A stretch of 52,809 nt of DNA from positions 1-52,809 of the IMG/VR virus record IMGVR_UViG_3300030430_003806; one strand, given 5' to 3'. The notes beneath the pieces were generated by a model. That model searched no databases. It saw nothing but the letters and a program-made list of their open reading frames with translations, and was not told the origin of the DNA. The position numbers and the translations under genes are program-made. The DNA comes from a virus (Duplodnaviria > Caudoviricetes). This document shows, piece after piece, positions 33,601-48,435 of the stretch; within the stretch, counting starts at the first letter, position 1; each line of letters starts with the position of its first letter.

Positions 33601-36600
33601 TTAGTTCTAGCAGTATCAGAATCATCTACCAAAGTATTTAAAAAAGGTGTAGAAAATAGTGAGTATGTATATGATATTTTTGAAAATACAGAAACTATAA
33701 ATCAAAAACAAAATGAGCTTTATTTAGGAGATGACTATCAAGCATTATCTGGCGAGGGTTTACGTATTCAGTTGGAGCTAGACAAACAATCTAACGAAAG
33801 ATTTTATCCATCACAATTATTTTATCATTTACATACTAACATTGATAGAGATGGTAAACCATTTATTGATAGCATGACTAATAGTCGTACAGAAGTAATG
33901 AATGAAAATAACGAAAGTCGTAACAGAAATATAATAGAAGTTGGTGATAACAAAAATGTATATAAAGAAAGAGATGAGCTTTTGTCATCCGTTAGCTCTA
34001 ATATATATGGACCGCTTATAGAAAACTTTTTTTCATATGCAGATCCAAGATATCCATATATAAATGGTCCTTACAATGCAGCAGCATTAGGAAGGGTGGC
34101 GCATAAGGGTACAAAGATGTATACAAAAGGTAGTATTGCATATCAGTCATCTGATCTAGGATTAAATTTAGAATCATACAAAAAAGTTTCTGACTATTAT
34201 GATGATAATGGTAATTATACTGGAGAAACCAATACGACATCACAAAAAATATTCAAAAGAAAACTAGACCTATTACTAGAAACAAAACCAAATACTATTG
34301 TTTCTGAAGCGTGGATACCAAGCTATATGAAACAACAGGGTGTAGAGATCGGAGATTTGTTTATTGGTACAAGAATACCTGCTCATGGTAAAGTAAGTAG
34401 TTCTGTTTTTATTATAAAAGAGTTTCACGAGAAGGTTGCTAACACACCTAGTAGTAATATTACAATACCTGCAAAGGTAAGTGCAGCTTGGGGTGCAGAC
34501 TTAGACGGAGATAGTGTGCATATGAATTTTAAATATACAGAAGAAGAGGCTAGAAAAACAAATTGGAAAAGAGCAAGCAATTTATTTTTTGACAACTATG
34601 TGCAATTAGTAAGTAATGATAATAAAACAGGTGAAACACAGGCGGTTATAGATATTAAAGATACAGTAGAAAAAATATTAGGTACAGAAACCCCAACCAC
34701 AGATAGTCAATTATTACCAACTGGTGATGCTTTAGTGTTTGAAAACAATGTTCCAGGAAAAAAATTAGTTGGTATTATAGCAGCATTGCAAAGAACATAT
34801 AATATATTTTCACACAATAATGAACCAACTCCTGTACCTATAACAATAAATGGTAAGCGTGTAACAAACTTTAATGATCAAAACAAAGACGAGTGGTTTG
34901 GTGTAGCGCAGTTATTGAACATTGCATTAGATAATGCTAAGTTTCAATACACAGAAAGATTAGGACTTACTTATCAAAGTGTTTTTTCATTTGTAACACT
35001 TAAAAGATTAGGATTTGATCTTAATGATATTGTTCAGATATACAATAGTGATCTTGTTAAAGAATACATGGAGTTTAAAAAATCTAGAAGTAGAAACTAT
35101 TTATCTAGAAATAGTGATATTGAAAAACTTTTTGATAAAGAATCGGATATTAGCTATAATGAATTAGTTGAGTTTTTAAGAACTAGATACAAGGGTATTG
35201 TACTAGGTAAAAAATATAATGCAGTTGCCTGGAATAAAATAACAGATCGTATAAAAGATGGACTATCTATTAATACCAATCAACTTAATGAGCAAGCACA
35301 ATTAGATGCTGTGCTTTTAATCTATACATTAGAACAATTCAATAAAGATGTTGTTAGGCCGTTTGGTAAAGCATTTACTATTCATCAAAATATAGAAAAA
35401 AATCCTGTTGAGTTAAAATCTGTGTATGAACAGATTGAAAAAATTAGAACAGAGTCAATAGTAATTAATGAAAAAAAACAAGGTGGTCTTAATATAGAAT
35501 ATAAACTTGGTAATAGTGCAAACAATAACATTGTAACACATGCGCAAAGTATATTTCAAAAAGTTTTGAATAGAGCCAGTATAACTGATTTAAGATACAC
35601 ACCATATGTGCAAAGTATTATTGCTACTGAAATTGGACAAAACTATTTAAATGATGAAAAAAGAGCTTCTAATAAAACTGAAATTATAAATCAAGTTATT
35701 ACTAACAATCTTATAAATAAATTACCGCAACTTCAGATTTATGATAGGCAAACTTTAATAGCTGAACTAGAAGATATGAAAACTAGATACATAGGTAATG
35801 GTTTTCTTAATATTTTAGAAATAGTAAAAAATGCAGATGGAGTAGAATTTATTACTCTATCTAGTAAAATTAACGATCTAATCAGTAAAACAGAAATAGA
35901 AAACATACAAAGTGAATTTGCTAAATTAAGTATTGAAGATAAAAATAAAATATTTAGCATGGAGGCGGAGTTCAATAAGTTTGGTTATACAGGCTATCCA
36001 AAAGCCATTTCTTTTGCACCATTTTTTGATGTACAATATATGGAAAGCATTAATGATGATATTGATGCTATGGTTGAATCAGAAAATAAAATTGAAGAGG
36101 ATCAGATTTTAGTTAAGCTAGATGAAGCGGCTAGATTAGTTTCATTTAAAAAAGATAAATATAGTCTAAATGATAGAGTAGACAATGCTAGCAAAAAAAG
36201 CAGAGATATACCAATAACAAGAAAAAAAGCTAAAAAAGCATATGGTTCACGTACATCATTCAACAGAGATGCGCTATCTGGTGAAACAAAAAAATATTCA
36301 TTTAATCAGTGGGTAGCTGATAAGGGTATAGATAAGAAAAAAATATCTAGAGATTCAATGACATTTAAATTATTGAAAGATAGATATGCTACATATGAAC
36401 AAGACTATGATATTGTAAAAGAATTTGAAGGTAGTTTAAAGCGTAAGCCACTTTCAAGATATAGTTTTGCAGATTTAGAAAAAACAATAAGAAAGTTTTA
36501 TAAACTTGATAATGCAGCTAGTCAATTTGTATTATACAAAATGGAGCTACAATTAGGAAAACTTGTTTTTCGTAAACAAGCAGAGTTTTTAAGATCAAAA

Positions 36601-38739
36601 GCAGGTCAACAAAACTTTAAGTACAATATTCCAGGTGAAGATGGTACGCCACAAAGCGATATATCTGGCTTTAGACTATGGTTAGGATCTAATAATATGA
36701 CATCTGATAGACCAGAAATACAAGAGTTAATAAATACAGCAGAAAGAGAATATACTTCATATGTAAATAGATTTAGAGAATATAGAAAAGCAATAAATGG
36801 TGCATATAATAAATTATATAATTCAAAAGTATCAGATCTAACAATAATTGAAAGAGTAAAAAAAGAATTTTTACTACAACAAAAGTATGAATTTATATTT
36901 GGTAATATAATCAAAGTAGATAATGGTAAGATAAGATTACTTAATAGTAAAGAATACAATAGAGCAAAAGCATCACTATCTAAAGAAGAAAGAGATTATT
37001 ATGAAATGTATAGAGATGTAACGGCTAGACTATTTAGAGGTCAGCAAAGAGCTGGTAATGATGCGTTGTTTTCATATGTACATGGAGCAAGTATGAGATC
37101 TTTAGAAGCTATGGATAAGAATGGCATGTTTGGTTTGTATGATATGATTATAGATTCAACTGATTATAATCGTGTAAAAGTAAGGGGTAAGGATCTAGAT
37201 GGTAAAATAAAACTTAAAACATTCTATGAGTGGAAATATGATGTGTACAAAAACAAAAGCACATTCGGTGGATTAAGAGAACTAAATAAACTTAGAGCAA
37301 AAGCTAAAAGATTTAAAAAACAAGGCATCAATGAGGATGGATCAAAAATACTATTGTCAGATGTAGAAATAGATGCACTAATAAACAACGGTCAGCTACT
37401 ACAAAAGATGTTGGATAAAAACATTAAAGGAGCATCTGATATAGATCTTGAAATAATTAAAGAGTATGAAAGACGAAGAGGTGCAGCTTTAGAATTTGCT
37501 ACTATGGATATCAATACAGCTTTACTTGAGTTTGCCAGAGGTAGTTTATTTTCTAATGGCGATTCTGAGTTTGGAGGTATGAAACAAACTAGTATACTTA
37601 CTAATGCTGCTATAGCATATAATAAAAATCTAAACAACGAGAATGCAGTCAAGTATTTGACTGAGTGGTGGAAACAAGGCTTTTTAGGTAAACAACAACA
37701 AACAAGTATATTTGGAGAAACAGGCGACAAGGTGATAGATGGATTTGTAAGTCTTACGTCATTAAGATTATTAGGATTTAATTTATCAGTTGGTGTAGGT
37801 AACTTATTAGCTGGTAAATACCAAGAATTACGTAAGCGTGGTGGTAGACAATTTATTACAGGAGAAGATAGATATTTTAGAAATAGAGGTAAGTCATTAG
37901 AAATACTTAAAAAATATAGGGTTATACAGCATAGCTTTGATGATTTTGTTCATTTATCTGAAGGTAAGGGTTTATGGGGTAAAATAGAAAAAGCATCATT
38001 TATCTTTATGGATAAAACGGAACACTATATACAGGGTGCTGCATTTTTAGGATTTCTTACAAATCAAGAGTTCAACACTGGTGAGATCAGTGAGTTAAGG
38101 GTTAGAGAAATAAATAACAGAATAGCAACATTACATGGTGAGGGTTATACGGCCTTAGACGCATCACTATTATCTATGTATTCATATGGTAGATCTTTAC
38201 TACAATTTAAGAAATGGTGGCTAACATTATTTGCTGATCGTTTTGGATCAGAGCAGATTAATAGATTTGGCGAAGTAACTATTGGAAGTTATACTGCAGC
38301 CACACAATATACAAGAGACATCTTTCAAAAATATTTTAGAGGTGAGATTACTATGGTAGACTTTTTTGAAGAGTATAAAAAACTATCACCTGCACGTCAA
38401 GAAGAAATAAAAAGTTTTATGCGGGGTATTGGTATTACTGTAGCAATACTATCTATGATAGCTATATTGGAAGACGATGATGATCCAGATACAGAGGTTA
38501 TCAAAGCTCTTAAAAAACTAGAAAATGATATATATGCAGCTACAGATATAGATAGATTTATTGGGTATACTATTATACCTGCATCTATTGCTACTGGTGA
38601 AACAGCAGTTGATTTTATAGGTGAAGTTGCGTTAGACAAAAAAGATAGACTAGGTAGAAGTAAAGCTTTACGTACACTAAAAACAGAATTGATTCCTGGT
38701 TCTAGTTTAGTTGAAGGAATAGAAAACCTTATAGATTAA
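27643..38739 (+). CDS. Virion-packaged two-barrel RNA polymerase polyprotein with a zincin-like domain
   Basis: 3698 aa; RIPAHG...GADLDGD catalytic loop (34492-34512), DYIKR, NDAMGY, KFVY and YLKF motifs; VHEAGH plus a downstream EE (about 30670-31040); hydrophobic segments at both termini. Confidence 0.9.
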   Translation: MIEKDTYNTDAKKAISEYDNSETNRINSLFDNIVVGEIPNQEASNYFRGLGALGSAQASQPQEQPLQEMLDPRAAIGTGRQRFVRGFKAGWGDLLYGSGDTYDFIKSFLTPGEPQPDSKIGNYLRNIGEQYQNDNVLALSKDFDDMSFSDLFKGEFYSSKFSRLLPYALSFVVPYGTGSILATRAMGRYGVKVLSKFGKAGKFATPGTGLAGKFVYDAGKKGLKATKLAKKTSGLVGGGLTANLVEGAYLSGEAYNTMINEKDANGNPLFTPKEASRQAVGVMGDNMKWAGLDILQYGLLFGGLGRTAGFNIGAVMKNVRPQKIKFSTNIRTLSASLMKKILPNLPAAGLYASLEGLTEGFQEVYQEWAKYANIQEAKGLEYDDWTDWLKTAPTDQAPKEIKDIFWSSVGLGGTLGGVRGYFDSAAERTKAFNDKSDRVNKQIDLWEQSYEDSAAGQRMQDAILAEQVWNYYGDGTYSKNQIQQQVDSGKMTQESADILFEAIDNLETAYEKHTINSGLTESGAQAAFFYEVELSRIKQEKKSLEESKNEQIDKISKVIKNKENLQEKVDAIEKEYNELVEKKNQEEAQLNQEIEFLYTRKKDTAPKTKAGARDKRFKPAGLTDQEFETLTQEGEQQRQEREAQEKKDQPSRLQRVTETAKKAGAAVVTGAQNVIQAGRDRIKSIQDKRAENRKIKDAVNQIDEMENITSSAKTKLKEAVENGEVTVEDALNIKGTGRDGNINNKDVNLLKKRQERKDTQAEETSPETPEDVKKKDQNRVVPKSRDYQEVESKGSRTLEKSKIEKGRGKSYYTIVKDGEKISYVDQEGRSDVFVLEDQDVDIELEVRSPQKGQENVVNIDGQLFFEFNNKLYESEIIVKANGVEIGKVAQRDFAKGFKRKAKKTSNKSVLDKVKQKIKKKQKDVKDYVSAIKDTRQDPDEYVGLKAYAQSGGRTSLYEYSYIKSIVDKKFPGFKGILMDNLIDDYGQKSVALAFGNIILINRDQVTQTTAVHEAGHIYYTLQKNTPLMKRIRKLLYRSKIYEDIRREYPELILINYKGDKITLGELYDRIKTDQSPNVDNAMVSLANELQEAEIANDNTKINELFNGLLLLAKGDGAKEVRRDLQDHVIEEAFVRTLENYSNGTADSVIEGTLAREQLEKDIIEFYKKTKDIATDEEAREFLNIAVADIENLNLETAIKYVLTNFEANNGKIPKIRNSAYGARKRASKDKTRRISGHSVIYSHISKYIGKAQSTDQITASVLKDLQKNYNLSEEQVADIKTYIEATVEKSNNKIQYKQGNKRFEKLLDDVSQESETLNDIEAREEKDLAMSTTMSNVMSNIVSIYNGRNPDNPMSLKKLMAKLIGLAKDNKYDSYLFITAARQETDEIANMFSVLDQVYLNPRLSNAKLLEMKMFFDNVQIENFTKNALVIEDKGVRSWRQFDATSSTLENRVVTSLLNKIKKDQNKIGPKLAAVYNELFDKDANSIYNRRIAAKKYLDNLFEDVENAGLIDKDAVLNNLLYFDGRRDYLHNILFDHTINKFGNPDLKTKGLMAFANKKFVFKTKAFTPGIFNKQIELRQILTQSLILSRASNYLSIVDNVENQGVSILNKENSLHNKSMRIANRVNNNEEFSKKNILHPDNNIFTAILEQRKKNGELVNDNKDIITNPLGISINSGLMTYLKSGVEAERYVDKSLAYTRMSSIELLASDYFQFISQYNKNKNKKSFFYQQPIAVFSDKSRRYYVDALAAHNDTTTKIILDKIKNNPAYKDTYTDGSRVFPFDITNNQISNIKQLEKEFNNYIEKNIELFKGNKDFVKNNPANKFFLTSYIANKFMAQQFFIHDHRQSKNEIDYIKRTAGAIASGTPYDRNAQVEMIIYKDTFDNEGNIQNDAMGYMLPEQIQEVSEKFGDIQKVGSVLKFVYYHTDIDTNETVYLKFAVHPITKTMEDNSEAFKKIADDLRARHTEISEVVIKDFDGENIFLHGNLVLAVSESSTKVFKKGVENSEYVYDIFENTETINQKQNELYLGDDYQALSGEGLRIQLELDKQSNERFYPSQLFYHLHTNIDRDGKPFIDSMTNSRTEVMNENNESRNRNIIEVGDNKNVYKERDELLSSVSSNIYGPLIENFFSYADPRYPYINGPYNAAALGRVAHKGTKMYTKGSIAYQSSDLGLNLESYKKVSDYYDDNGNYTGETNTTSQKIFKRKLDLLLETKPNTIVSEAWIPSYMKQQGVEIGDLFIGTRIPAHGKVSSSVFIIKEFHEKVANTPSSNITIPAKVSAAWGADLDGDSVHMNFKYTEEEARKTNWKRASNLFFDNYVQLVSNDNKTGETQAVIDIKDTVEKILGTETPTTDSQLLPTGDALVFENNVPGKKLVGIIAALQRTYNIFSHNNEPTPVPITINGKRVTNFNDQNKDEWFGVAQLLNIALDNAKFQYTERLGLTYQSVFSFVTLKRLGFDLNDIVQIYNSDLVKEYMEFKKSRSRNYLSRNSDIEKLFDKESDISYNELVEFLRTRYKGIVLGKKYNAVAWNKITDRIKDGLSINTNQLNEQAQLDAVLLIYTLEQFNKDVVRPFGKAFTIHQNIEKNPVELKSVYEQIEKIRTESIVINEKKQGGLNIEYKLGNSANNNIVTHAQSIFQKVLNRASITDLRYTPYVQSIIATEIGQNYLNDEKRASNKTEIINQVITNNLINKLPQLQIYDRQTLIAELEDMKTRYIGNGFLNILEIVKNADGVEFITLSSKINDLISKTEIENIQSEFAKLSIEDKNKIFSMEAEFNKFGYTGYPKAISFAPFFDVQYMESINDDIDAMVESENKIEEDQILVKLDEAARLVSFKKDKYSLNDRVDNASKKSRDIPITRKKAKKAYGSRTSFNRDALSGETKKYSFNQWVADKGIDKKKISRDSMTFKLLKDRYATYEQDYDIVKEFEGSLKRKPLSRYSFADLEKTIRKFYKLDNAASQFVLYKMELQLGKLVFRKQAEFLRSKAGQQNFKYNIPGEDGTPQSDISGFRLWLGSNNMTSDRPEIQELINTAEREYTSYVNRFREYRKAINGAYNKLYNSKVSDLTIIERVKKEFLLQQKYEFIFGNIIKVDNGKIRLLNSKEYNRAKASLSKEERDYYEMYRDVTARLFRGQQRAGNDALFSYVHGASMRSLEAMDKNGMFGLYDMIIDSTDYNRVKVRGKDLDGKIKLKTFYEWKYDVYKNKSTFGGLRELNKLRAKAKRFKKQGINEDGSKILLSDVEIDALINNGQLLQKMLDKNIKGASDIDLEIIKEYERRRGAALEFATMDINTALLEFARGSLFSNGDSEFGGMKQTSILTNAAIAYNKNLNNENAVKYLTEWWKQGFLGKQQQTSIFGETGDKVIDGFVSLTSLRLLGFNLSVGVGNLLAGKYQELRKRGGRQFITGEDRYFRNRGKSLEILKKYRVIQHSFDDFVHLSEGKGLWGKIEKASFIFMDKTEHYIQGAAFLGFLTNQEFNTGEISELRVREINNRIATLHGEGYTALDASLLSMYSYGRSLLQFKKWWLTLFADRFGSEQINRFGEVTIGSYTAATQYTRDIFQKYFRGEITMVDFFEEYKKLSPARQEEIKSFMRGIGITVAILSMIAILEDDDDPDTEVIKALKKLENDIYAATDIDRFIGYTIIPASIATGETAVDFIGEVALDKKDRLGRSKALRTLKTELIPGSSLVEGIENLID

Positions 38740-38751
38740 CAATATAAGAAG

Positions 38752-38767
38752 AAATTTATTAACTTTG
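38752..38767 (+). promoter_or_regulatory. Late promoter motif AAATTTAT-TAACTTTG
   Basis: TAnnTTTG at 38760-38767, upstream of ATG 38780. Confidence 0.65.
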
Positions 38768-38779
38768 TAAAAAATTCAA

Positions 38780-39187
38780 ATGGCAAATATAGACGATTTA
38801 TATAGCAAAAGTTTTGGACAATTAGGTTCAGTTTATGTATCAAGTGGTGGAGCTATAACACCACCCACAAATAAAGTATTTATAGCATTTACTGTGTTAG
38901 AAACTGGCACCACATTTGCTAATCATGGCGGTTTAATAGCCGATACAAATAAAGGTGAAATGCAATATGTTACTACTGAAGATAATTCTGGGGGTGATGT
39001 TTATTCGGGTGGAGCAAATGGTGGCTCACATTCAATTGCAATTGGTTCAGAAACACAAGTGTTTGGTGGAGGTGGACAAGAGTTGGTAGTTGGTCAAACA
39101 TTTCCAGCAGGAGTTACTATATTTGGTAGATATAAAAGAATAGAATTAGGTAGCACAGGGGCGGTCATTGCATATATTGGTGACTGA
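38780..39187 (+). CDS. Small Gly-rich structural protein
   Basis: FPAGVTIFGR...G.VIAYIG C-terminus typical of small virion proteins. Confidence 0.55.
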   Translation: MANIDDLYSKSFGQLGSVYVSSGGAITPPTNKVFIAFTVLETGTTFANHGGLIADTNKGEMQYVTTEDNSGGDVYSGGANGGSHSIAIGSETQVFGGGGQELVVGQTFPAGVTIFGRYKRIELGSTGAVIAYIGD

Positions 39188-40323
39188 TGTTAGGTTTAGC
39201 TACAGCATTAAACTCAAGTAGTCTTAAGAAAAAATCTTCTCTTACAAATAAATTTTCAGCAGAACTTGATGGTACAGGTGATTACATAGATGTTAGCAGT
39301 CTATCAAATGAAATAGATAAAGCTGCAGGAACAATATCTATGTGGATAAGACTTCAAGCTACAAGCGGTAATGAATCTTTTTTTAATTGTAGTGATGGCA
39401 CTAGCAGTGATAATAAGCTTGTTTTAATGTATAATACGGGTAGCGCTAAAATTGAAGCTAAGTACAGATCTGGTGGCACAAGCATGGTAGCTGAGTATTC
39501 TATAGCTGGAGACGATATTACAGCGTTAGGCTGGTTTCATTTAGCTATGACATATAATACAAGCACACCTTTAATACAGTTGTTTTTAAATGGAACAAGA
39601 GTTGCGCAAAAAACATCATCATTTACTCAAATGAGTGAAGATGTAGCAATAGATAGAGTAAGATTAGGATCTAATTCTAATGCAGATAATACATATCACC
39701 ATGGTCATCTAGATGAGTTTATATATATAGGCGGTAAAGATTTAACAGAATCAGAAATGTTATTATTATATAATAGTGGTAAACCAGACGATATAGGTGA
39801 TTTACCATCAGCAATATATAGTGCTATAAGGTGTTGGTTGCGTTTTGGAGATGGACAGATTGATGGAGATGCAGATCAATTGACAGCTATTTTTGATAAC
39901 AAAAATCTTTCAGTGGATAGTGATATTATAGATAACGGTGATTTTAGTAATAATCTTACAAATTGGACAGATAATGGTGTTGATGTTTCTAATGGTGTTG
40001 TAAACTTTAATCATAATTCAGATTATATTTTTCAAAACCATGGCGCATCATTTACAGTTGGAAAGATTTATAGAGTTAAAACAGAAGGATCGGGTTCTTT
40101 AAGATTTAGATATGGTTTTGCTAACACAGCAGGCACACTTAGACCATTTACTGTTGGAACTGTGTTATATTTTACAGCAGATAGTGACAGTAATAGAATA
40201 CAGTTTTATGGTAGTGCTTCACCCTCAAACGCTACACTATCTAATGTTATAGTTCAAAAATTAAATGGAAATACTGGTTTTTGTGTAGCAGACTCAACAG
40301 TAGGAAATAATAATGTACCATAA
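39187..40323 (+). CDS. LamG/concanavalin A-like domain protein with a C-terminal carbohydrate-binding-like module (putative receptor-binding protein)
   Basis: LDGTGDYI, TISMWI, WFHLAMTY, LFLNG, GHLDEF and LYNSG, then IIDNGDFS. Confidence 0.8.
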   Translation: MLGLATALNSSSLKKKSSLTNKFSAELDGTGDYIDVSSLSNEIDKAAGTISMWIRLQATSGNESFFNCSDGTSSDNKLVLMYNTGSAKIEAKYRSGGTSMVAEYSIAGDDITALGWFHLAMTYNTSTPLIQLFLNGTRVAQKTSSFTQMSEDVAIDRVRLGSNSNADNTYHHGHLDEFIYIGGKDLTESEMLLLYNSGKPDDIGDLPSAIYSAIRCWLRFGDGQIDGDADQLTAIFDNKNLSVDSDIIDNGDFSNNLTNWTDNGVDVSNGVVNFNHNSDYIFQNHGASFTVGKIYRVKTEGSGSLRFRYGFANTAGTLRPFTVGTVLYFTADSDSNRIQFYGSASPSNATLSNVIVQKLNGNTGFCVADSTVGNNNVP

Positions 40324-40325
40324 TT

Positions 40326-40583
40326 ATGTATAATAATAAAACATATGTAATATTAGATGCATCTGATTTAGAAAAAGTAGATTCAAATGGTGATCCATTA
40401 TTTGATTTTTCTGATGTTTTAAACATTTCTAAATATTATTTAAGGTATAATTTAGCTGGAGATAAAGCTTTAGTTAAATACGAAGGTGATACACCTGAAT
40501 CATTAAAAGATAAAGTAAAATATACACATGAAGAAATATTAACTATTGTTAGTGGATCAGATTGGTTAAGCAACGATGAATAA
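40326..40583 (+). CDS. Small acidic protein associated with the LamG gene
   Basis: 85 aa; DFSDV...LRY...KALVKYEGDTP...YTHEEIL. Confidence 0.65.
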   Translation: MYNNKTYVILDASDLEKVDSNGDPLFDFSDVLNISKYYLRYNLAGDKALVKYEGDTPESLKDKVKYTHEEILTIVSGSDWLSNDE

Positions 40584-41604
40584 ACTTATATTTATATTAT
40601 TGATAATTAGCTTTTCTACTGAAGCTCAGATAAATAAATATTTAAAATTTTCTACATTCTATGTAGCTGCAAATGGAGGGACATCAATATCTGATGTTGA
40701 TGTATATTCAATTCAAGACGGGCTACAAACATCTACAATACAGACACCATATGACTATAATTTATCACTAGGAGTAAGAAAGATAGCAAGGTTTGGTTAT
40801 GAAAATAGAGCTCAAACTTTTTATGATGGCACAGAAACATCATGGTCTGATGCAGCTACACTTGGCAAGGTTAGTGGTCTAGAGTTTTTATTTGAGTTCA
40901 ATAAAAAAAGACAAGAAGGTGATGATTATCTAGATCAACACTATTTTATAAGATATGTTGACAATGATTGGCTAACAAAAGTAGAGTATCTACAAGACGG
41001 ATTTGCAGATATACAATACTATGAAGCATCACAAAGATATAGATATAAATACAACAAACACTTATCATTTAATATTGGTGCTGTTCAACGTATAGCAGAA
41101 CCCTATGGTTATGATCCGCTTTCTGAATGGTTACTTGATAACGGAGATATACATTACACATATTTAGCAATACAAGAGGGATACACAATAGATGTTCATA
41201 ATAGCGAGTATAAAGATCCAAATGGAAATATAGTGGCAACATCATCAGATGTTTGGAAAGAAATAATAATACCTGGAGTATTAAGAGATTATGTTGAAAG
41301 AAAAAGAGATGAATTACCTGCACAATGGAATCACTCTTTAGTTGTTGGATATGATTATTATTATTATACAAAAATGTTTTGGTTACATTCTTGGGCTAAC
41401 CTATTACCATGGCACTATGATGCGGGTAATGAATATAGCTATCATAAATATAATAATGGTCAGTGGTTAGATTATTCTGGTGGAGTAATATTTGGTTATA
41501 AGTATAGTAAACAATTAGGATTATTTGCTGAAGGTAAGTATAATAAATACTGGAATAGGGAATGGTATGATTTTAAATTAGGTGTTAATTATATATTATT
41601 ATGA
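40576..41604 (+). CDS. Exported, aromatic-rich, beta-barrel-like outer-membrane protein
   Basis: Signal peptide ending TEA-Q; alternating hydrophobic strands; C-terminal YDFKLGVNYILL resembles a BAM beta-signal. Confidence 0.7.
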   Translation: MNKLIFILLIISFSTEAQINKYLKFSTFYVAANGGTSISDVDVYSIQDGLQTSTIQTPYDYNLSLGVRKIARFGYENRAQTFYDGTETSWSDAATLGKVSGLEFLFEFNKKRQEGDDYLDQHYFIRYVDNDWLTKVEYLQDGFADIQYYEASQRYRYKYNKHLSFNIGAVQRIAEPYGYDPLSEWLLDNGDIHYTYLAIQEGYTIDVHNSEYKDPNGNIVATSSDVWKEIIIPGVLRDYVERKRDELPAQWNHSLVVGYDYYYYTKMFWLHSWANLLPWHYDAGNEYSYHKYNNGQWLDYSGGVIFGYKYSKQLGLFAEGKYNKYWNREWYDFKLGVNYILL

Positions 41605-41771
41605 AAGTAAATTGGATAAATGGCTACAAGGCCAATAATAAAAAAGAAGTATACAGAATAGAATTTAGACTTGGTACAATGACATTATTTTATGTTCATT
41701 ACTGTGCTTGTGTCGGTGGAACGTGTTCAAGATTTAGATTAATGTTGTTTAACTTTGGAATAGAATTATAA
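41601..41771 (+). CDS. 56-aa Cys-containing microprotein (absent from the ORF track)
   Basis: Hand translation MKVNWINGYKANNKKEVYRIEFRLGTMTLFYVHYCACVGGTCSRFRLMLFNFGIEL; ATGA overlap upstream and TAATG overlap downstream. Confidence 0.7.
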   Translation: MKVNWINGYKANNKKEVYRIEFRLGTMTLFYVHYCACVGGTCSRFRLMLFNFGIEL

Positions 41772-42052
41772 TGTCAAAAGAACTAAATGAAGATACTAGT
41801 TTTAAAGTAAGTGTAAAAACTTTAATAGCAATAGGGGCTGGTCTATCAGCTTTAATAGGCATGTGGTTTACGTTACAGGCAGATATAGCTGAAGCTAAAG
41901 AACTACCTGTATCTACACCAGAAGTTACTCGCATGGAGTTTGATATGAAAGATCAAATGATTAGACAATCAATAATCAACACTGAGGCTAATGTTAAAAA
42001 ACTTGAAGAAAGAATGATAAGAATGGAGGATAAAATAGATAAGCTGAGATGA
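41771..42052 (+). CDS. Single-pass membrane protein with a C-terminal coiled coil
   Basis: LIAIGAGLSALIGMWFTL TM segment; VKKLEERMIRMEDKIDKL heptads. Confidence 0.75.
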   Translation: MSKELNEDTSFKVSVKTLIAIGAGLSALIGMWFTLQADIAEAKELPVSTPEVTRMEFDMKDQMIRQSIINTEANVKKLEERMIRMEDKIDKLR

Positions 42053-42387
42053 AAAAATGTTTGAAATTTTTATTTGTATTATTTTTATTTACGGTATATA
42101 CAGAATGTTGTTTTTCACAGATCACAGCGATTTACTTTAATGCATCTTGGAATGCTGCGAATGAAGTTGTTTGGTTTGATAAATTAAATGATGTAGAAAA
42201 AGAAACTATGGATATTGGTAAAGGTGATTGTCAACAGAAATATAAAATAGCAGTAGTTCCTACGATCTTACTTATGAAGGACGGAGAGGAAGTTAAAAGA
42301 TTTCAGGCTGATTTAAGCTTTAAATTAATGGCTACTAAAAAAGAAATACAGAATATAATTGATGAACTATTAATGGAAGATTTCTAA
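42049..42387 (+). CDS. Exported thioredoxin-fold protein lacking CxxC
   Basis: Signal peptide ending CFS-Q; YFNASWN in place of FxAxWC; KYKIAVVPTILLMKDGEEVKRF matches the thioredoxin cis-Pro region. Confidence 0.75.
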   Translation: MKKCLKFLFVLFLFTVYTECCFSQITAIYFNASWNAANEVVWFDKLNDVEKETMDIGKGDCQQKYKIAVVPTILLMKDGEEVKRFQADLSFKLMATKKEIQNIIDELLMEDF

Positions 42388-44720
42388 TGAAAAAATTTAT
42401 ATTTATATTATTGATATTACAAGCTTGCGTTGCACCAAAAGAATGTTGTGGTCAAAATACGTGGGTTAACTTCAGAGTAATGTTTGATTTTTATGGACCA
42501 CAAGAGTCTAATTTCTTTATGGTATCAAACACCAATGGCGATACTGCAATGTATCATCAACCAACAACACCTTATGAATATATAGATACAATAATATTTT
42601 TAACTTCAGGACAATATACAGTTACACTAAACGATTCTTATGGTGATGGGTGGGTATCAAACCAACCTTCTTGGTTTGAAATGCGTAATCCATGTCAAGG
42701 TCAGATAATAAATTGGAATCCATTAGTTGATCCATTTTTTATCAGAGATACTGTCGTAAATATTTTACCTTGTCCCCCACCTAATCCACCTGCTCCACCA
42801 GTATGTGAGCTTACAATAATTAATATAAACCTAGATCAGTTTCCAGAAGAAACATCTTGGGATATTGTAGATAGTTTAGGCAATACAATTATATCAGGAG
42901 GTACATATCCCAACGCACCAAACTATCAACCACAATTTATTCTTAACTGTTTACCAGTGGGTGAACTTACATTTACTATTTATGACACATATGGCGATGG
43001 CCTTCAAGGATCTCTTTGGGGTGGGCAAGACGGATCGTATTATGTAATACAATGCGAAGACACCCTTGTATACGGAACAGTAGCTAACTTTGGTAGTGAT
43101 ACAAGTCATGTATTTATAAGCGATACATGTATACCACCACCACCTGTATATGGGTGTACAGATGATGATTATGTAGAATACAATCCTCTTGCAACAATAG
43201 AAGACAGTAGCTGTGTTACTTTAAAAATATATGGATGTACAGACAGCACTATGTTTAACTATGATAGTTTAGCTAATACAATAGAAAATATAGATCGTTG
43301 TACATATGATCTAATATTACATGATTTAGTAGGGAATGGTTGGGTTGGAACAAGACTTGAAATTTATCAAGAAGATGATACATCATTATTTTTTATGACA
43401 AATGGTTTTAATCAATACTTTACTATTGATTTATATGCTGTAGAAGAAGTAAGTGCAAAACTATTTGTAAGTCAACAAGCGCAAAACACTGCTCTTGAAT
43501 GTGGTTTTACACTAATTAATCCATACGGGGATACTGCATTAAGCATTAGACCACCTTTTGTTGTTCCATTTAAACTATACGAAGGCGAAACATATTGCGG
43601 TAATACATGTGAAGAAAAAATTTATGGGTGTATAGATTCTCTTGCATTTAACTATGTGGATACAGCAAACGTAGGAACAGCATGTTACTATTATCCAGGA
43701 TGTATATCGCCTGCCTATCTTGAATATCATGTAGATACAACAAATGGATATTTTACGGACATAAATATACAAGATAGCTGTATAACATTAGCTGTATTTG
43801 GATGTATGGACGACACTATGTCAAACTATAATATATTAGCTAATGTAGATAATGGCGGATGTATACCTTATGTATATGGGTGTATGGATCCTTTGATGTT
43901 TAATTATAACGCTTTAGCTACAGCGCCAGATACATGTATACCATATCTTTATGGGTGTACAGATCCAACTATGTACAACTATGATCCGTTTGCAAATACA
44001 GATAATGGATCATGCGAGCCCTATGTATATGGTTGCACAGATAGTACAATGTTTAATTATAATCCCTTAGCCAATGCTGACAATAATACTTGCGTGCCTT
44101 ATATCTATGGTTGCACTGATCCTAGCATGCTCAACTACAACCCACAAGCGAATACAGAAGATTTCAGTTGCATACCTTACATTTACGGTTGTACTGATAG
44201 TACTGCCTTTAATTATGATTCAACAGCTAATACTGATAATGGTTCGTGTGAAGCTGTTGTACAAGGATGTATGGACCAATCAGCATATAACTATGACGTT
44301 ACGGCTAATGTTAGTGACAGTGCTAACTGCCTTTTTGATGCTGGTTGCATCACTGGTCCTGGTTCCCCTTATTGGTTGAACGATCCTTGTTATGCTTGGG
44401 TAATAGATGTAGATGAATATTGTTGTGAAAATGAATGGGACACTATTTGTCAAAGCACATATAATTATTGTTATAATAATTGGAGTGGTCCGATACTAAC
44501 TAGACAAATAGCAGATCTTGATATATATCCTAATCCAACAAAAGGTAAAATATATTTTAGTAAATTTGTAAATGTTGTATTATACAACATATCAGGACAA
44601 GAGCTCAAAAGAAAAAAGAAAGTACAGGAGTTAGATTTATCTAACATGGAAGAAGGACTATATTTAATTGAATTAGAATACAATGAAAATGTATTCATAA
44701 ACAAAATTATTAAACGTTGA
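42387..44720 (+). CDS. Secreted Cys-repeat protein with a type IX secretion (T9SS) C-terminal sorting domain
   Basis: Signal peptide; three DxYGDG-like domains; 11 GC(T/M/I)D-type repeats; C-terminal IYPNPT...LYNISGQ...LDLSN...GLYLI...KIIK. Confidence 0.85.
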   Translation: MKKFIFILLILQACVAPKECCGQNTWVNFRVMFDFYGPQESNFFMVSNTNGDTAMYHQPTTPYEYIDTIIFLTSGQYTVTLNDSYGDGWVSNQPSWFEMRNPCQGQIINWNPLVDPFFIRDTVVNILPCPPPNPPAPPVCELTIININLDQFPEETSWDIVDSLGNTIISGGTYPNAPNYQPQFILNCLPVGELTFTIYDTYGDGLQGSLWGGQDGSYYVIQCEDTLVYGTVANFGSDTSHVFISDTCIPPPPVYGCTDDDYVEYNPLATIEDSSCVTLKIYGCTDSTMFNYDSLANTIENIDRCTYDLILHDLVGNGWVGTRLEIYQEDDTSLFFMTNGFNQYFTIDLYAVEEVSAKLFVSQQAQNTALECGFTLINPYGDTALSIRPPFVVPFKLYEGETYCGNTCEEKIYGCIDSLAFNYVDTANVGTACYYYPGCISPAYLEYHVDTTNGYFTDINIQDSCITLAVFGCMDDTMSNYNILANVDNGGCIPYVYGCMDPLMFNYNALATAPDTCIPYLYGCTDPTMYNYDPFANTDNGSCEPYVYGCTDSTMFNYNPLANADNNTCVPYIYGCTDPSMLNYNPQANTEDFSCIPYIYGCTDSTAFNYDSTANTDNGSCEAVVQGCMDQSAYNYDVTANVSDSANCLFDAGCITGPGSPYWLNDPCYAWVIDVDEYCCENEWDTICQSTYNYCYNNWSGPILTRQIADLDIYPNPTKGKIYFSKFVNVVLYNISGQELKRKKKVQELDLSNMEEGLYLIELEYNENVFINKIIKR
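43148..44330 (+). repeat. Intragenic array of about 25-aa YGCTDxxxxNYxxxANxDxxxC repeats
   Basis: 11 copies counted in the translation, seven of them back to back; boundaries approximate. Confidence 0.85.
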
Positions 44721-44938
44721 GTTTTCTAAACATCTTTAAAGACAATAATAATTATAATGAAAAAACTATAATTGGGTTTATAGCTTTTTTAATAATGTGT
44801 GTAATTATGATTGCTGACTTACTTACAGGTTGGTTTGGTAAAGATCTTATCATTAACGAGTTTGTATATGATTCATTTACTTTGATCGTATTAGGGTGTT
44901 TCGGAATAGCTGGACTAGAAAAATTTGCAAAAAAATAA
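44717..44938 (+). CDS. Two-TM membrane protein, holin-like
   Basis: 73 aa with two hydrophobic helices and a basic C-terminus; TTG start overlaps the upstream stop. Confidence 0.55.
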   Translation: MSFLNIFKDNNNYNEKTIIGFIAFLIMCVIMIADLLTGWFGKDLIINEFVYDSFTLIVLGCFGIAGLEKFAKK

Positions 44939-45099
44939 TGGCTAGAAAAACAGTAAAAGCACCTGCAGGATTTCATTGGATGAAAAAAGGTAATAATACA
45001 TATAAGTTAATGAAACATACAGGTAAATTTAAAGCACACAGAGGAGCTAGTTTAAGCGCTAGTTTTGATGTACAGAAGGTTCACAGAAAAAAAAGTTAA
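44938..45099 (+). CDS. Basic microprotein (53 aa)
   Basis: Start re-assigned to ATG 44938 (TAATG overlap): MARKTVKAPAGFHWMKKG... Confidence 0.7.
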   Translation: MARKTVKAPAGFHWMKKGNNTYKLMKHTGKFKAHRGASLSASFDVQKVHRKKS

Positions 45100-45100
45100 T

Positions 45101-45265
45101 ATGCCAAAAGACGCTTGTTATTATAAAGTAAAAGCTAGATATGGACCAAAGACTTCCGCATACAGGAGTGGTGCAATGGCTAAATGTAGAAAAGTTGGTG
45201 CAGCTAACTGGGGTAATAAATCCAAAAAGAAAGCATCACAAGGTATGAGATTCCAACACGATTAG
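45101..45265 (+). CDS. Basic microprotein (54 aa) of the DACYxKVK...SAYxSGA...CRK type seen in marine phages
   Basis: Start re-assigned to ATG 45101; ends RFQHD. Confidence 0.7.
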   Translation: MPKDACYYKVKARYGPKTSAYRSGAMAKCRKVGAANWGNKSKKKASQGMRFQHD

Positions 45266-45266
45266 T

Positions 45267-45524
45267 ATGGCTGTAAGAAAAACAAAAGCTGGACTAAGAT
45301 TAAAGCGTTGGTTTAAGGAAGACTGGAGAACACCTTCAGGTGAAAAAGATTATAGTAAAGGAGAAAATACATTTAGACCTACTAAACGTATAAGTAAAGA
45401 TACACCAAAGACTTGGAGTGAGTTAAGTCCTGGAGAAAAAAGAGCAGCTGCAAGAGAGAAAAAGAAAAAAGGTAGAGTTAGTAGATATAAAGGTGGAGGT
45501 AAATTTTTAAGACAACTAGATTAA
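45267..45524 (+). CDS. Basic protein, DUF5872-like (LKRWFKEDW)
   Basis: LKRWFKEDW...FRPTKRISKDTPKTWSEL; ends LRQLD. Confidence 0.7.
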   Translation: MAVRKTKAGLRLKRWFKEDWRTPSGEKDYSKGENTFRPTKRISKDTPKTWSELSPGEKRAAAREKKKKGRVSRYKGGGKFLRQLD

Positions 45525-45534
45525 ATTTAATATT

Positions 45535-45849
45535 ATGAAACATAAAATGAAAAAAAAGAAAATGTATAAAAAAGGCGGTATGCTTAAACCAGTTGATAAA
45601 AAAAAGAATCCTGGTTTAGCAAAACTTCCTAAAGATGTTAGAAATAACATGGGCTTTATGATGTATGGAGGTAAGGTTAAGAAAGCTCCAGGCGGCATGA
45701 TGATGAAAAAAAGAATGATGAACTATGCTGGTGGTGGTAAAATGCTTAACGGAATGTCTATGCAAAAAGCCGCTAAAGGAATGAAAATGGACTATGGTCA
45801 TGGTGGTATGATGAATAAGCCAGGACAAGGTTTGAAACAGCTTGACTAA
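45535..45849 (+). CDS. Met/Lys/Gly-rich basic protein with repeated xxxGG motifs
   Basis: YKKGG, MMYGG, APGG, YAGGG and YGHGG; NPGLAKLPKDVRNNMGF core; ends LKQLD. Confidence 0.75.
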   Translation: MKHKMKKKKMYKKGGMLKPVDKKKNPGLAKLPKDVRNNMGFMMYGGKVKKAPGGMMMKKRMMNYAGGGKMLNGMSMQKAAKGMKMDYGHGGMMNKPGQGLKQLD

Positions 45850-46196
45850 TGCCAGAGAACCCTATTAGACGTACAATAGGTAAGGGTGGCAACTATCGTA
45901 AAACAAAGTCTGGAGCTGGCATGACTCGTAAGGGTGTTGCTGCATATAGGAGAGCAAACCCTGGTAGCAAGCTGAAGACTGCAGTAACAGGTAAGGTTAA
46001 GCCTGGTAGTAAAGCTGCTAAACGTAGAAAGTCGTATTGCGCTAGAAGTTTAGGGCAACTAAAACGTAGTAGTGCTAAAACTAGAAATAATCCAAACTCA
46101 AGAATAAGACAAGCAAGACGTAGGTGGAAATGTGAACATGGTTGTGCAATGCCTGCAAGATCAGGATCTAGAGCTATGTATAGACAATTAGACTAA
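45849..46196 (+). CDS. Basic protein, DUF6321-like
   Basis: GMTRKGVAAYRRANPGSKLKTAVT...RRKSYCARS...RRRWKC; ends YRQLD. Confidence 0.75.
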   Translation: MPENPIRRTIGKGGNYRKTKSGAGMTRKGVAAYRRANPGSKLKTAVTGKVKPGSKAAKRRKSYCARSLGQLKRSSAKTRNNPNSRIRQARRRWKCEHGCAMPARSGSRAMYRQLD

Positions 46197-46396
46197 TGGC
46201 AGTATTAACAACAATAAATAATATACCAGTCTTTAGTACAGTACAAGAAGCTTTGAACTGGGCAGCATCTAATAATTTATCTGGATATCATACACATATG
46301 GTGAATGGCCAGATAGGATATATGGGTGGACCAACACATGGACAGGCTGCAGGATCGTCACAAGGATTAAGAGGTAGTAATCAATCTAGTTACTAA
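46196..46396 (+). CDS. His-motif microprotein
   Basis: GYHTH...GYM...H, a possible metal-binding module; TAATG overlaps on both sides. Confidence 0.65.
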   Translation: MAVLTTINNIPVFSTVQEALNWAASNNLSGYHTHMVNGQIGYMGGPTHGQAAGSSQGLRGSNQSSY

Positions 46397-46788
46397 TGAG
46401 TTTATTAGGTAAAATTTTTAGTTCAGGTGCTAGTGATTTGGTAAAAAATGTAGGTGGTGTAATAGATAATTTACACACATCTAAAGAAGAAAAATTAGAA
46501 GCACAGCGTAAACTTCAAGAGTTAGTTGCTAACTATGAGGTTGAAATGGAAAAAAATGTAACTGACAGATGGAAGTCAGATATGAATAGTGACTCTTGGT
46601 TAAGTAAAAATGTAAGACCATTAGTTTTAATATTTTTAGTAGTAAGTACAGTGCTTATGATATTTATAGATGCAGGAAGTATAAGTTTTTCTGTTGAAGA
46701 AAAATGGACTGATTTATTACAAATAACTTTAATTACAGTAATTGGTGCATATTTTGGTGGCAGATCATTGGAAAAGCGTAAGAGATGA
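46396..46788 (+). CDS. Holin, GTA 3TM holin-like family
   Basis: IDNLHTSKEEK...RWKSDMNSDSWLSKNVRP, two TM helices and YFGGRSLEK. Confidence 0.75.
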   Translation: MSLLGKIFSSGASDLVKNVGGVIDNLHTSKEEKLEAQRKLQELVANYEVEMEKNVTDRWKSDMNSDSWLSKNVRPLVLIFLVVSTVLMIFIDAGSISFSVEEKWTDLLQITLITVIGAYFGGRSLEKRKR

Positions 46789-47057
46789 AATTCAAATGGT
46801 TAGTGAAAACAGATGATGAAATATATCATGAGTCTATGCAAAATGCATATATATTACTAACACAACAAATTACATTTGATGAGCTTATAGATTACAATGG
46901 TTGCAACCTTCCATTTCATCCAAGAAAAAAAATAACAAAAAAAATATATAGTTCACTTATTAATTATTTTTGTGAGCTAGAAGAATACGAAAAATGCGCT
47001 CAACTAAAAAGCGTTATGGATTCAGATAACTATGATAAAAATTTATTAAATTTGTAA
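46785..47057 (+). CDS. Small protein with a UVR-like C-terminal helical hairpin
   Basis: YFCELEEYEKCAQLK. Confidence 0.6.
   Translation: MKFKWLVKTDDEIYHESMQNAYILLTQQITFDELIDYNGCNLPFHPRKKITKKIYSSLINYFCELEEYEKCAQLKSVMDSDNYDKNLLNL
47039..47054 (+). promoter_or_regulatory. Late promoter motif AAATTTAT-TAAATTTG
   Basis: TAnnTTTG at 47047-47054, upstream of ATG 47070. Confidence 0.65.
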
Positions 47058-47069
47058 AAACTTAAAAAA

Positions 47070-47459
47070 ATGGCTAAAAACTATACATTGAATTGTTCTT
47101 TAAGCATGGCAGCTAATTCAGCTACTGGATATTCACAATCACAAAGTGGTAACTATCAACTTAATATTACTGGAGTAGATCAAATAGCTTCAGGTAGAAT
47201 TGATGTTGCACATGATGGTGATGCTACAATTATGGCGGCACCAGGACATGGAAGAGTAATTTACGTAAAAAACTTAGATGATACTAACTTTGTAAAAGTA
47301 TATGATGGTGCATCAAGTGCAAACGATTTAATTGGTATACTTGAGCCAGGTCAATTTTTAATGACAATAATTAGAGGAACAGGAACTACAACAGCAAGAG
47401 CTGATACAGCAACTGTTACAGTAGAATACGCAGCAGTAGAAATAGATTCAAACGCATAA
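47070..47459 (+). CDS. Small beta-rich structural protein (paralogue A)
   Basis: IYVKNLDDTN...ILEPGQF. Confidence 0.65.
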   Translation: MAKNYTLNCSLSMAANSATGYSQSQSGNYQLNITGVDQIASGRIDVAHDGDATIMAAPGHGRVIYVKNLDDTNFVKVYDGASSANDLIGILEPGQFLMTIIRGTGTTTARADTATVTVEYAAVEIDSNA

Positions 47460-47469
47460 AAAATAAAAT

Positions 47470-47898
47470 ATGGCAACTCAATCATTATCAGTAACAGTAT
47501 CAGGTACACTTACACTAACAGATTCAGATGGTAATCAAGTGTTTACTTTTTCACCATCTTTTCAAACAGCATCTACTACAGTAGATTCAGCATTAATATC
47601 AACTGGTGAAATATTAACTAACGGAACTAGTGACACTACTATTAATTTAGCAAGACACAATAAAGATATGATATTTACATTTATTAAAAATGTAGATACA
47701 GATTATCCTGTAGCAGTAAAACCAGATGGTGATGTAATTGCTGATCTTAAACCAGGTGAGTGTATGTTTTCACCAATACATGTTGATGGGGCAGGTGATG
47801 GATCGGCTAACTTAGATTTAGCTGCTACGACAGCTGCACAAAAAGTTCAATATCTTATTTGTGATGGACCTGACACTGGAATAAGTTCAGATGACTAA
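47470..47898 (+). CDS. Small beta-rich structural protein (paralogue B)
   Basis: TFIKNVDTDY...DLKPGEC. Confidence 0.65.
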   Translation: MATQSLSVTVSGTLTLTDSDGNQVFTFSPSFQTASTTVDSALISTGEILTNGTSDTTINLARHNKDMIFTFIKNVDTDYPVAVKPDGDVIADLKPGECMFSPIHVDGAGDGSANLDLAATTAAQKVQYLICDGPDTGISSDD

Positions 47899-47958: not shown

Positions 47959-48435
47959 ATGAAACTTAAGGTTTTAAGATTTAGTAGCCAGGAGGATAGC
48001 ACTTCTGGCTTACTTTTTTTAGACCACAATGATGGTCTTGAATTTCTATGTTATACTCTTGAAGATGAACACAGATCAAAAAAAGTAAGAGGAGAAACAA
48101 GAGTACCTGCTGGTACATATAATTTATCACTTAGAAAAGTAGGAGGCTTCCATGAAAGATACAAAAAGAAATATGGTGCGTTTCATAAAGGGATGTTACA
48201 AGTTATGGATGTACCAAACTTTGAATATATTCTTATACATACTGGTAACACTGATGAACATACTGCTGGATGTTTACTTGTTGGTGACTCTCAAGAAAAC
48301 AACATCATTATCAAAGATGGATTTATTGGTAAATCAAATAATGCGTACAAAAGAATATATCCAGATATTGCAAAAGAGATTAAGAAAGGCAATAAGGTAA
48401 CAATTCAGTATATTGATTTAGATAACAATGATTAG
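47959..48435 (+). CDS. DUF5675-like protein, putative endolysin (L,D-transpeptidase-like His/Cys motif)
   Basis: FLCYTLED...GETRVPAGTY...VPNFEYILIHTGNTDEHTAGCLLVG. Confidence 0.8.
   Translation: MKLKVLRFSSQEDSTSGLLFLDHNDGLEFLCYTLEDEHRSKKVRGETRVPAGTYNLSLRKVGGFHERYKKKYGAFHKGMLQVMDVPNFEYILIHTGNTDEHTAGCLLVGDSQENNIIIKDGFIGKSNNAYKRIYPDIAKEIKKGNKVTIQYIDLDNND

Follow-up and report, generated by a model that had tools for sequence, protein, structure and literature searches.

Four genes of an uncultured phage appear to form a conserved module whose products are predicted to enter the envelope of the infected cell and reach its surface. They lie at 40576-44720 of IMGVR_UViG_3300030430_003806, a linear IMG/VR virus record of 52,809 bases with a completeness estimate of 79%, which was analysed over its whole length and is called the window here. 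The genes are designated A342, C93, D112 and E777 (A, C, D and E for the families in related phages), and in the window a fifth gene, B56, lies among them. The reading proposed, held with a probability of about 0.55, is that these genes make up an envelope module specific to phages and conserved in a very large marine clade of uncultured crAss-like phages with Bacteroidota hosts, its products being predicted to be exported to the surface. The predicted use of three host machineries, namely Sec, BAM (beta-barrel assembly machinery) and T9SS (type IX secretion system), is well supported by signal sequences and modelled folds. Masking or binding of a surface structure by E777 is a tentative component of that reading, possible rather than probable when taken by itself.

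The region contains five + strand open reading frames (ORFs) joined by stop/start overlaps (ATGA between A342 and B56, TAATG between B56 and C93, ATGA between C93 and D112, TAATG between D112 and E777), exactly where an earlier, sequence-only reading had placed them. The packing is equally tight in the flanks, where g85 overlaps A342 by 8 nt and the pairs g135/LamG and E777/F73 overlap too, so that a unit cannot be delimited by overlaps alone. Searching IMG/VR with A342 gave 406 contigs carrying a relative, and the locus counts rest on the best 80 loci, in which A is 62-97% identical to A342 and gene content was scored by tblastn of the window proteins. A was found in all 80 of these loci; 72 had C, 68 had D, 62 had E and 21 had B. 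The genes that flank the module in the window (the end of a giant ORF, g135, LamG, g85 and F73) were present in only 6-8 of the 80; flanking genes differ between lineages. A, C, D and E occur jointly in 60 loci, and in the other 20 the contig ends no more than 2.1 kb after A or no more than 2.4 kb before it, on the side of the missing gene, so that every locus long enough to be informative has all four. Thirty-nine loci are arranged A-C-D-E, 19 C-D-E-A and two E-A-C-D, over a span of 2.4-6.2 kb. C and D are neighbours except in two lineages with small g129-type genes between them. Small mobile-looking genes are often inserted in module loci, for example a homologue of staphylococcal nuclease (PF00565, 47 bits), which belongs to a cluster represented in 30 loci. 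The conserved unit is thus four genes, with A before C or after E; the proposed co-occurrence of five genes in viral loci stands for these four and falls for B56. The PADLOC models, used to look for known proteins of anti-phage defence or exclusion, matched none of A, B, C, D, E and F73 (0 families).

Three of the products begin with the N-termini that had been singled out from the sequence, ...TEA-Q, ...CFS-Q and ...CCG-Q, in which the predicted cleavage exposes Gln. Gln at +1 corresponds to the Q-rule published for Bacteroidetes (PMC5837995). An ad hoc rule, which asked for a K/R n-region, a hydrophobic core free of charges, small amino acids at both -3 and -1, and Gln at +1, was applied to all ORFs of the 80 related loci and of the window. 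It picked out 76 of 81 A proteins, 67 of 69 D proteins and 52 of 74 members of the E cluster, which includes truncated ORFs and a second, non-exported repeat protein. No C (0/71) or B (0/21) protein was picked out, and among other ORFs only seven of 592, which look like further exported inserts. By this measure a predicted signal peptide followed by Gln is conserved in A, D and E, far above background. The N-terminus of E777 also reads as a lipobox-like L-Q-A-C, and signal peptidase II may alternatively cleave it before Cys14. Behind the hydrophobic core, many A proteins and E777 carry a lipobox-like Cys motif, C-x2-[PT]-K-x-C-C-x-Q, where a plain signal peptidase I site would otherwise stand. 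Among the related loci 37 of 80 A proteins and 3 of 59 E proteins have this motif, as do 27 of the 120 A and 11 of the 120 E relatives in the protein lists. In the window lineage it is present in E (42387-42455) and not in A; examples in A are found in loci L008, L009 and L028. It may mark lipidation or a shared sorting signal in some A and E proteins.

A342 (40576-41604, 342 amino acids (aa)) has a signal peptide at residues 1-17 and is supported as an outer-membrane beta-barrel by its predicted fold, in agreement with what had been read from its sequence. The AlphaFold2 model, built from 28 sequences, is an antiparallel sheet of 12-14 strands (predicted local distance difference test (pLDDT) 72, predicted template-modelling score 0.63) with a conserved helical insert of about 70 aa at residues 181-246. 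Foldseek against the PDB ranked NanC best (E-value 1.5e-6), followed by KdgM, OmpG and BamA, and the listed matches were almost all membrane barrels. VIA-align against 48,161 chains placed CymA first (Z 13.2, root-mean-square deviation (rmsd) 4.5 Å, 211 residues aligned), with the barrel of TamA at Z 12.8, EspP at Z 11.1 and PorV, the T9SS shuttle (6h3i_F), at Z 11.0 behind it, values too close to single out one barrel family. No family in Pfam, NCBIfam or PHROG matched A342, and none in Pfam matched 23 distant relatives down to 25% identity; judged by its model, A would be a new family of outer-membrane barrels. The BFVD collection holds one unnamed viral protein of 342 aa with this fold (A0A516LKJ4; E-value 1.5e-22, TM 0.68, 20% identity) and several porin-like proteins of uncultured phages. 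The N-termini of A proteins vary yet are always signal-peptide-like, and the C-terminus is conserved as ...N-Y-x-I-[F/R/L]. Of 79 sequences, 49 end in F, an aromatic residue as a beta-signal would have; 22 end in R and 8 in L, and the window copy ends in L. A342 contains no Cys. A barrel enzyme built on the nearly invariant S254 and H271 was considered as a Ser-His pair and dropped, the modelled strand register keeping the two residues apart.

E777 (42387-44720, 777 aa) is an exported, Cys-rich modular protein by its predicted features. Behind a signal peptide at residues 1-22 (hydrophobic segment 4-22) it has three beta-sandwiches (24-126, 140-245 and 304-401; AlphaFold2 pLDDT 75-88) and at least nine copies of a two-Cys repeat of about 26 aa. 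An invariant Cys-rich helical module stands just before the tail, which is a predicted T9SS type A C-terminal sorting domain (residues about 709-777; 44511-44717, + strand). Of its 40 Cys, 37 are in the mature part, which fits an extracytoplasmic protein. The tail scores 37.6 bits against PF18962 (cut-off 27) and 37.1 bits against TIGR04183 (cut-off 23). Its modelled fold matches the domain of NucA in the Flavobacterium johnsoniae translocon (8glk_D; Z 10.6, rmsd 1.6 Å over 68 residues, 24% identity) and FspA (8glj_D; Z 10.5, 33% identity), with mirolase, RemA and RgpB (Z 7.8-9.0), PorZ and PorU ranked lower, and a Foldseek TMt of 0.79. Two curated models and the predicted fold thus support E777 as a T9SS type A cargo. 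This had been claimed at the outset and stands for E777; it does not extend to the whole family, in which 14 of 42 E tails pass PF18962. The sorting domain is precomputed in 28 of the 120 E relatives listed. The remaining tails, about 38 aa long, align only with the last strands of the sorting domain and may represent a minimal T9SS signal. The T9SS route of E therefore reads as clear in the window and about a third of lineages, and as uncertain with the shortened tail.

The rest of E777 is less easily placed. Outside the sorting domain its fold matches in Foldseek and VIA-align are weak and generic, and no enzyme or curated binding domain was detected in E by Pfam, NCBIfam or cluster annotations. 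A look-up of residues 23-260 in the Atlas returned viral 'hypothetical' clusters only, with named leads below 0.9, and matches to E in the phage collection searched were confined to the short Cys repeat. E777 was also considered as a copy of the phage's own fibre, and this was rejected because it shares nothing with other window proteins. The family comprises 2734 clusters. A larger second protein, with the repeat and without a signal peptide, lies among tail-fibre-like genes in several related loci (L040:3435-8018 and the 'f19 E f20' genes of L006, L013, L047, L052 and L055).

The sandwiches of E777 suggest one use of the protein that differs from the one preferred here. E777 would be an auxiliary, lectin-like adhesin, secreted or surface-bound, that sticks infected cells to particles, algal polysaccharide or cells and so raises contacts between progeny and hosts, and A, C and D would serve only its export and folding. 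One sandwich resembles the calcium-dependent carbohydrate-binding module 2xhh, a weak match (Z 6.8), and whole-model Foldseek matches are multi-sandwich adhesion-type proteins. N-terminal domains differ in number and type, and length ranges from 630 to 1134 aa, between lineages. The gene LamG upstream of the module encodes a lectin-fold protein (Laminin_G_3). Phage T9SS cargoes described in PMC7468147 are glycan-active. The weak fold matches and the lack of any detected enzyme or binding domain speak on the other side, and a substrate-capture role leaves the dedicated, highly conserved barrel and the inner-membrane protein unexplained. Adhesion as the purpose of the module is considered distinctly unlikely.

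D112 (42049-42387, 112 aa) starts with a signal peptide or signal anchor (residues 1-23; hydrophobic segment 4-25). As a single sequence it stays under the Pfam thioredoxin cut-off (17.6 versus 23.5 bits) and also under the TIGR cut-off. A family profile of 36 sequences matches PDB thioredoxins, 2vim_A best (E-value 2.8e-9, 40 bits), with 196 sequences at E-values of 1 or less. An exported thioredoxin fold had been anticipated for this gene, and both the profile match and the signal-peptide count uphold it. The D family has W-N-x-x-N at the thioredoxin W-C-G-P-C site, where the hidden Markov model alignment has a gap; the cis-Pro region is conserved, as is a C-terminal ...M-[SE]-D-F. Since CxxC is absent, D resembles thioredoxin in fold only. 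Its sequence is that of a redox-dead thioredoxin fold behind a signal peptide or anchor.

C93 (41771-42052, 93 aa) is a predicted bitopic membrane protein. By Kyte-Doolittle hydropathy it has a single hydrophobic segment at residues 11-36 (nt 41801-41878), followed by a Pro-rich linker and a charged helical C-terminal part. The N side has net charge 0 with two Lys next to the helix, the charge right after the helix is -3 and the tail is highly charged; by the positive-inside rule the N-terminus would be in and the C-terminus out. An alignment of 33 sequences has a mean column identity of 63%, the short N-terminal part included. The membrane coiled coil that had been proposed keeps its single pass and charged helical tail, and the coiled coil itself is represented only by sub-threshold matches in Pfam, PHROG and NCBIfam. 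A profile of C found no relative in the PDB, and the Atlas look-up gave viral 'hypothetical' clusters only, with named leads below 0.9. A complex prediction for A342 residues 18-342, C93 37-93 and D112 24-112 scored 0.00 against a mark of 0.32, with no controls, and is uninformative either way.

B56 (41601-41771, 56 aa, Cys-containing) is a genuine conserved small protein and an accessory one. It aligns with 17 relatives at 40-95% identity and usually follows A. Kyte-Doolittle hydropathy gave no hydrophobic segment, and Pfam, NCBIfam, PHROGs and PADLOC returned nothing. The microprotein predicted here is thus real and conserved; as a member of an envelope system it falls away, having no export or membrane feature and being confined to 21 of 80 loci.

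The surrounding genome is that of a distant crAss-like phage. The window encodes a large terminase (phrog_6681, E-value 7e-93), a portal protein (phrog_6547, E-value 5e-118) and a major head protein that matches phrog_11589. The head protein shares 26-29% identity with its counterparts in gut crAss-like phages (62 records matched) and also matches Flavobacterium psychrophilum phages and an Azobacteroides phage. Nearly all long ORFs are on the + strand and no tRNA was found in the window. The phage setting assumed at first sight for the cassette is confirmed by these genes and by the IMG/VR virus record itself. The host is presumably a member of the Bacteroidota, to which the Q-rule signal peptides and the T9SS domain point.

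The A family comprises 3699 clusters at 90% identity, or 411 representatives at 50%. All 3699 are 'hypothetical' and on contigs of 105 kb or less, many of them from ocean surveys. A pattern scan of 185,579 species genomes, reaching close relatives only, gave eight loci, all in metagenome-assembled genomes (MAGs) labelled as unrelated taxa (Parvibaculum, Nitrosopelagicus, Rickettsiales, Maricaulis, Flavobacteriales and Sphingobacteriales); they look like mis-binned phage contigs. An A profile run against 401 sampled genomes of one Bacteroidota class, that of one such MAG, matched one of the 401, the MAG itself. As far as searched, the A family appears to be phage-only.

Such a distribution bears directly on whether the cassette could be host DNA misassembled onto a phage. 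Eleven studies have marine, estuary and seawater runs with sequence nearly identical to the window. For four runs, each from a different study, contigs cover every bin of 38000-47500 and bridge the junctions LamG/g85/A, A/B/C, C/D/E and E/F73. The chimeric host-phage join that the sequence-only reading had named as the danger to its proposal is not borne out by these contigs. The same module stands between phage genes in 60 independent viral loci, the G+C content of the window is even (0.28-0.36), and a cellular homologue of A was not found in the 185,579 species genomes or, beyond the one MAG, in the 401 of one class. Misassembly is refuted as far as these data go.

A route through the envelope can be proposed from the features of the four proteins. 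During infection the Sec machinery of the host would export A, D and E, whose signal peptides obey the Gln +1 rule. Host BAM would insert A into the outer membrane as a barrel of 12-14 strands with its helical insert. C would span the inner membrane and extend its helical tail into the periplasm, where D would be present as a redox-inactive thioredoxin-fold protein. The Cys-rich, lectin-like E would cross the outer membrane through the host T9SS and be placed on the surface of the infected cell or released from it, with A as its outer-membrane partner and C and D as periplasmic helpers. There it might bind to or cover some structure of the surface and so keep additional phages, or the progeny of the phage itself, from adsorbing to infected cells and debris. 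The helical insert of A and the Cys-rich module of E are the best conserved parts of their proteins, which fits a conserved partnership. A pairing of A with E, a meeting of C with D in the periplasm and joint action of the four may follow from this arrangement.

Several observations weigh against this reading. The module is core and A is among the most conserved genes (62-97%). Genes for exclusion are usually accessory and variable, and a core module therefore fits an essential step such as lysis better. In 39 of 59 full-module loci a holin, M15 peptidase or DUF5675 gene lies near the module, mostly 0-3.5 kb away. A T9SS in the host is itself presumed, and T9SS export is uncertain for the majority of lineages, whose E tails do not pass PF18962. 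A cultured relative is absent from the phage collection searched: neither the cassette nor C-D gave a match at the DNA level, and tblastn with A and two distant A relatives gave none. No protein was found in which D is fused into a longer chain, which is weak evidence. The repeat of E also occurs in a 'virion structural protein' of cyanophage S-CAM3 and, in some relatives, in a 1527-aa protein without a signal peptide.

The cyanophage match belongs to an account in which the products are parts of the virion (E might be a fibre or a decoration protein) and what look like signal peptides have another nature. The genes do stand among structural ones, including a tail-fibre-like 1460-aa ORF and the LamG protein. 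Against it, three families retain predicted signal peptides with Gln at +1 despite variable N-terminal sequences, A has the predicted fold of an outer-membrane barrel and a putative barrel-type C-terminus, E has a T9SS sorting domain, and 37 Cys argue for oxidative folding outside the cytoplasm. A virion role is improbable in the light of these features.

The main rival of the surface reading is provided by the neighbourhood. A holin gene at 46396-46788 (+) matches phrog_3427 (E-value 1.2e-32) and falls just under the Pfam cut-off for GTA_holin_3TM; it lies 1.7 kb downstream of the module in the window and directly after it in some relatives. A DUF5675 protein at 47959-48435 (+; 96.8 bits), with a weak likeness to Tlde1, could by its sequence be an endolysin. 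In relatives a Peptidase_M15_3 gene (49.8 bits) is found nearby, instead of or besides DUF5675, and an unannotated 203-aa family follows the holin. At least one of holin, M15 peptidase, DUF5675 and the 203-aa family is present in the 39 loci already mentioned, mostly within 3.5 kb. The cassette had been described from its sequence as a set of late-region genes; the adjoining lysis genes had not been seen.

These genes invite the view that the module serves the outer-membrane step of lysis in phages without classical spanins. C would approximate to an inner-membrane spanin (i-spanin), A would be the outer-membrane component replacing a lipoprotein outer-membrane spanin (o-spanin), D a periplasmic adaptor, and the surface layer would be loosened or marked by E. 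Being core and strongly conserved, the module fits an essential step, and the presence of Peptidase_M15_3 or DUF5675 near the module in many loci is in keeping with it. In size and predicted topology C resembles an i-spanin or antiholin, and the following gene overlaps it, as o-spanin genes often do. A crude, home-made lipobox scan of the + strand of the window gave no other o-spanin candidate, the only ORF with a lipobox being E777; the window is 79% of the genome, and spanins could be elsewhere. On the other side, D has no lipobox in most lineages and a globular thioredoxin fold, and in this it departs from o-spanins. Only about 55 residues of C would be periplasmic, beta-barrels are not known to fuse membranes, and a 777-aa T9SS cargo has no place in known lysis systems. 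A lysis role is, on this evidence, unlikely.

A further arrangement would make the four proteins a single trans-envelope assembly. C would be an inner-membrane rod, D an adaptor, and A a barrel receiving the T9SS-delivered E in place of the host attachment step. The assembly would have an essential late function, either a new way of breaching the Bacteroidota outer membrane, or of getting free of it, at lysis or an obligatory receptor mask. This arrangement is doubtful.

Other features of the window lie close to the module. F73 (44717-44938, +, 73 aa) starts at a TTG overlapping the E777 stop, has two strong hydrophobic segments and is present in 8 of 80 loci; these segments could make it another membrane protein of holin type. 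Small, very basic ORFs of 66-115 aa follow in a run at 44896-46196 (+), one of them with DUF6321 (45.5 bits). In four metagenome runs, depth at 44974-45290, at 45925-46241 and over the C93 stretch 41804-42120 is many times that of neighbouring sequence, which suggests sequence common to many co-occurring strains. The genes g129 and g142 (47070-47898, +) encode small beta-rich proteins without signal peptides, 82-86% identical across lineages, with no family and no PDB relative found. They occur in up to three tandem copies beside the module and twice between C and D (for example loci L014, L028, L033 and L042).

Directly upstream of the region lies a giant ORF of 3698 aa (27643-38739, +) that matched no PHROG family. 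Its translation contains a D-x-D-G-D-type motif, which presumably recalls the virion RNA polymerases of crAss-like phages. The module is found directly 3′ of the equivalent giant gene (cluster f5) in most relatives. A 522-aa protein at 21961-23529 (+), among large virion or cargo genes, carries an SLT lytic transglycosylase domain (47.1 bits) and is probably a virion-borne wall-degrading enzyme for entry.

The interest of the module is that it is core, multi-layered and, as far as searched, phage-only, and that the marine clade carrying it is very abundant, its protein clusters in ocean metagenomes numbering in the thousands. Lysis, release and exclusion are poorly understood in Bacteroidota phages, crAss-like phages included, and here one module appears to use three machineries of the host envelope (Sec, BAM and T9SS) simultaneously. 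Should the products localise as their sequences say, they would give workable access to the way in which a lytic phage remodels the surface of a marine Flavobacteriia-type host. The E tails also constitute a natural test of the minimal length of a T9SS sorting signal.

Among known systems, the two-component spanins of the lambda Rz/Rz1 type share with the module a predicted N-terminal membrane helix and a putative helical periplasmic part in C, an overlapping next gene whose product is predicted to be exported, and a nearby holin. They differ in that D is mostly not a lipoprotein and has a globular thioredoxin fold, and in that the outer-membrane member here is a barrel. C93 matched no spanin family in Pfam or PHROG. 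Most D signal peptides end in small-x-small before Q and lack a Cys, so that the lipobox of an o-spanin is missing.

Phage proteins exported to the host envelope during infection, among them outer-membrane proteins and proteins that block receptors or exclude other phages, include Lom of lambda, Llp of T5, and Imm and Sp of T4. Export to the envelope is the feature in common, and a sequence relation to any of those named is absent. They are single genes, mostly accessory, in contrast to the multi-gene core module described here. Partner barrels of the PorP/SprF type are found beside T9SS cargo and serve type B sorting domains. A similarly has about 340 aa and is encoded next to a T9SS cargo gene. 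In contrast to PorP/SprF, A matches no Pfam or NCBIfam model at E-values of 0.1-1 or less, and the sorting domain of E777 is of type A. Type A cargo proteins such as NucA, FspA and RemA of F. johnsoniae and RgpB of Porphyromonas gingivalis resemble E777 in their Sec signal peptide and in a C-terminal sorting domain, about 70 aa long, with a beta-sandwich fold. It differs from them in coming from a lytic-type phage, in a passenger without a known domain and in a family in which two thirds of orthologues have a short tail that fails Pfam.

No description of the module or of the A family was found in the literature searched (supplements and subscription journals lay outside its scope). The sequence-only reading had called this an undescribed system, which is fair for the module; its ingredients have precedents, phage-encoded T9SS cargo in PMC7468147 and phage-encoded Q-rule proteins in PMC10367356. 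The latter account, on prophages of P. gingivalis (Matrishin et al. 2023), reports proteins with Gln-exposing signal peptides and reads them as an adaptation to Sec with a potential for outer-membrane modification. Those phages are temperate and of another family, and in the parts of that account bearing on these proteins no barrel, T9SS domain or conserved module is described. The other precedent is 'Cryophage' from Arctic cryoconite (Bellas et al. 2020, PMC7468147), whose phage-encoded type A T9SS cargo was called 'a unique occurrence'. In common with the phage of the window, it has a Bacteroidota host (presumably so for the window phage) and codes for proteins whose type A sorting domains are presumed to send them through the machinery of the host. 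The cargoes reported for Cryophage are variable, island-borne glycoside hydrolases and a PA14 protein, whereas the cargo described here belongs to a core four-gene module with its own barrel, found on hundreds of contigs.

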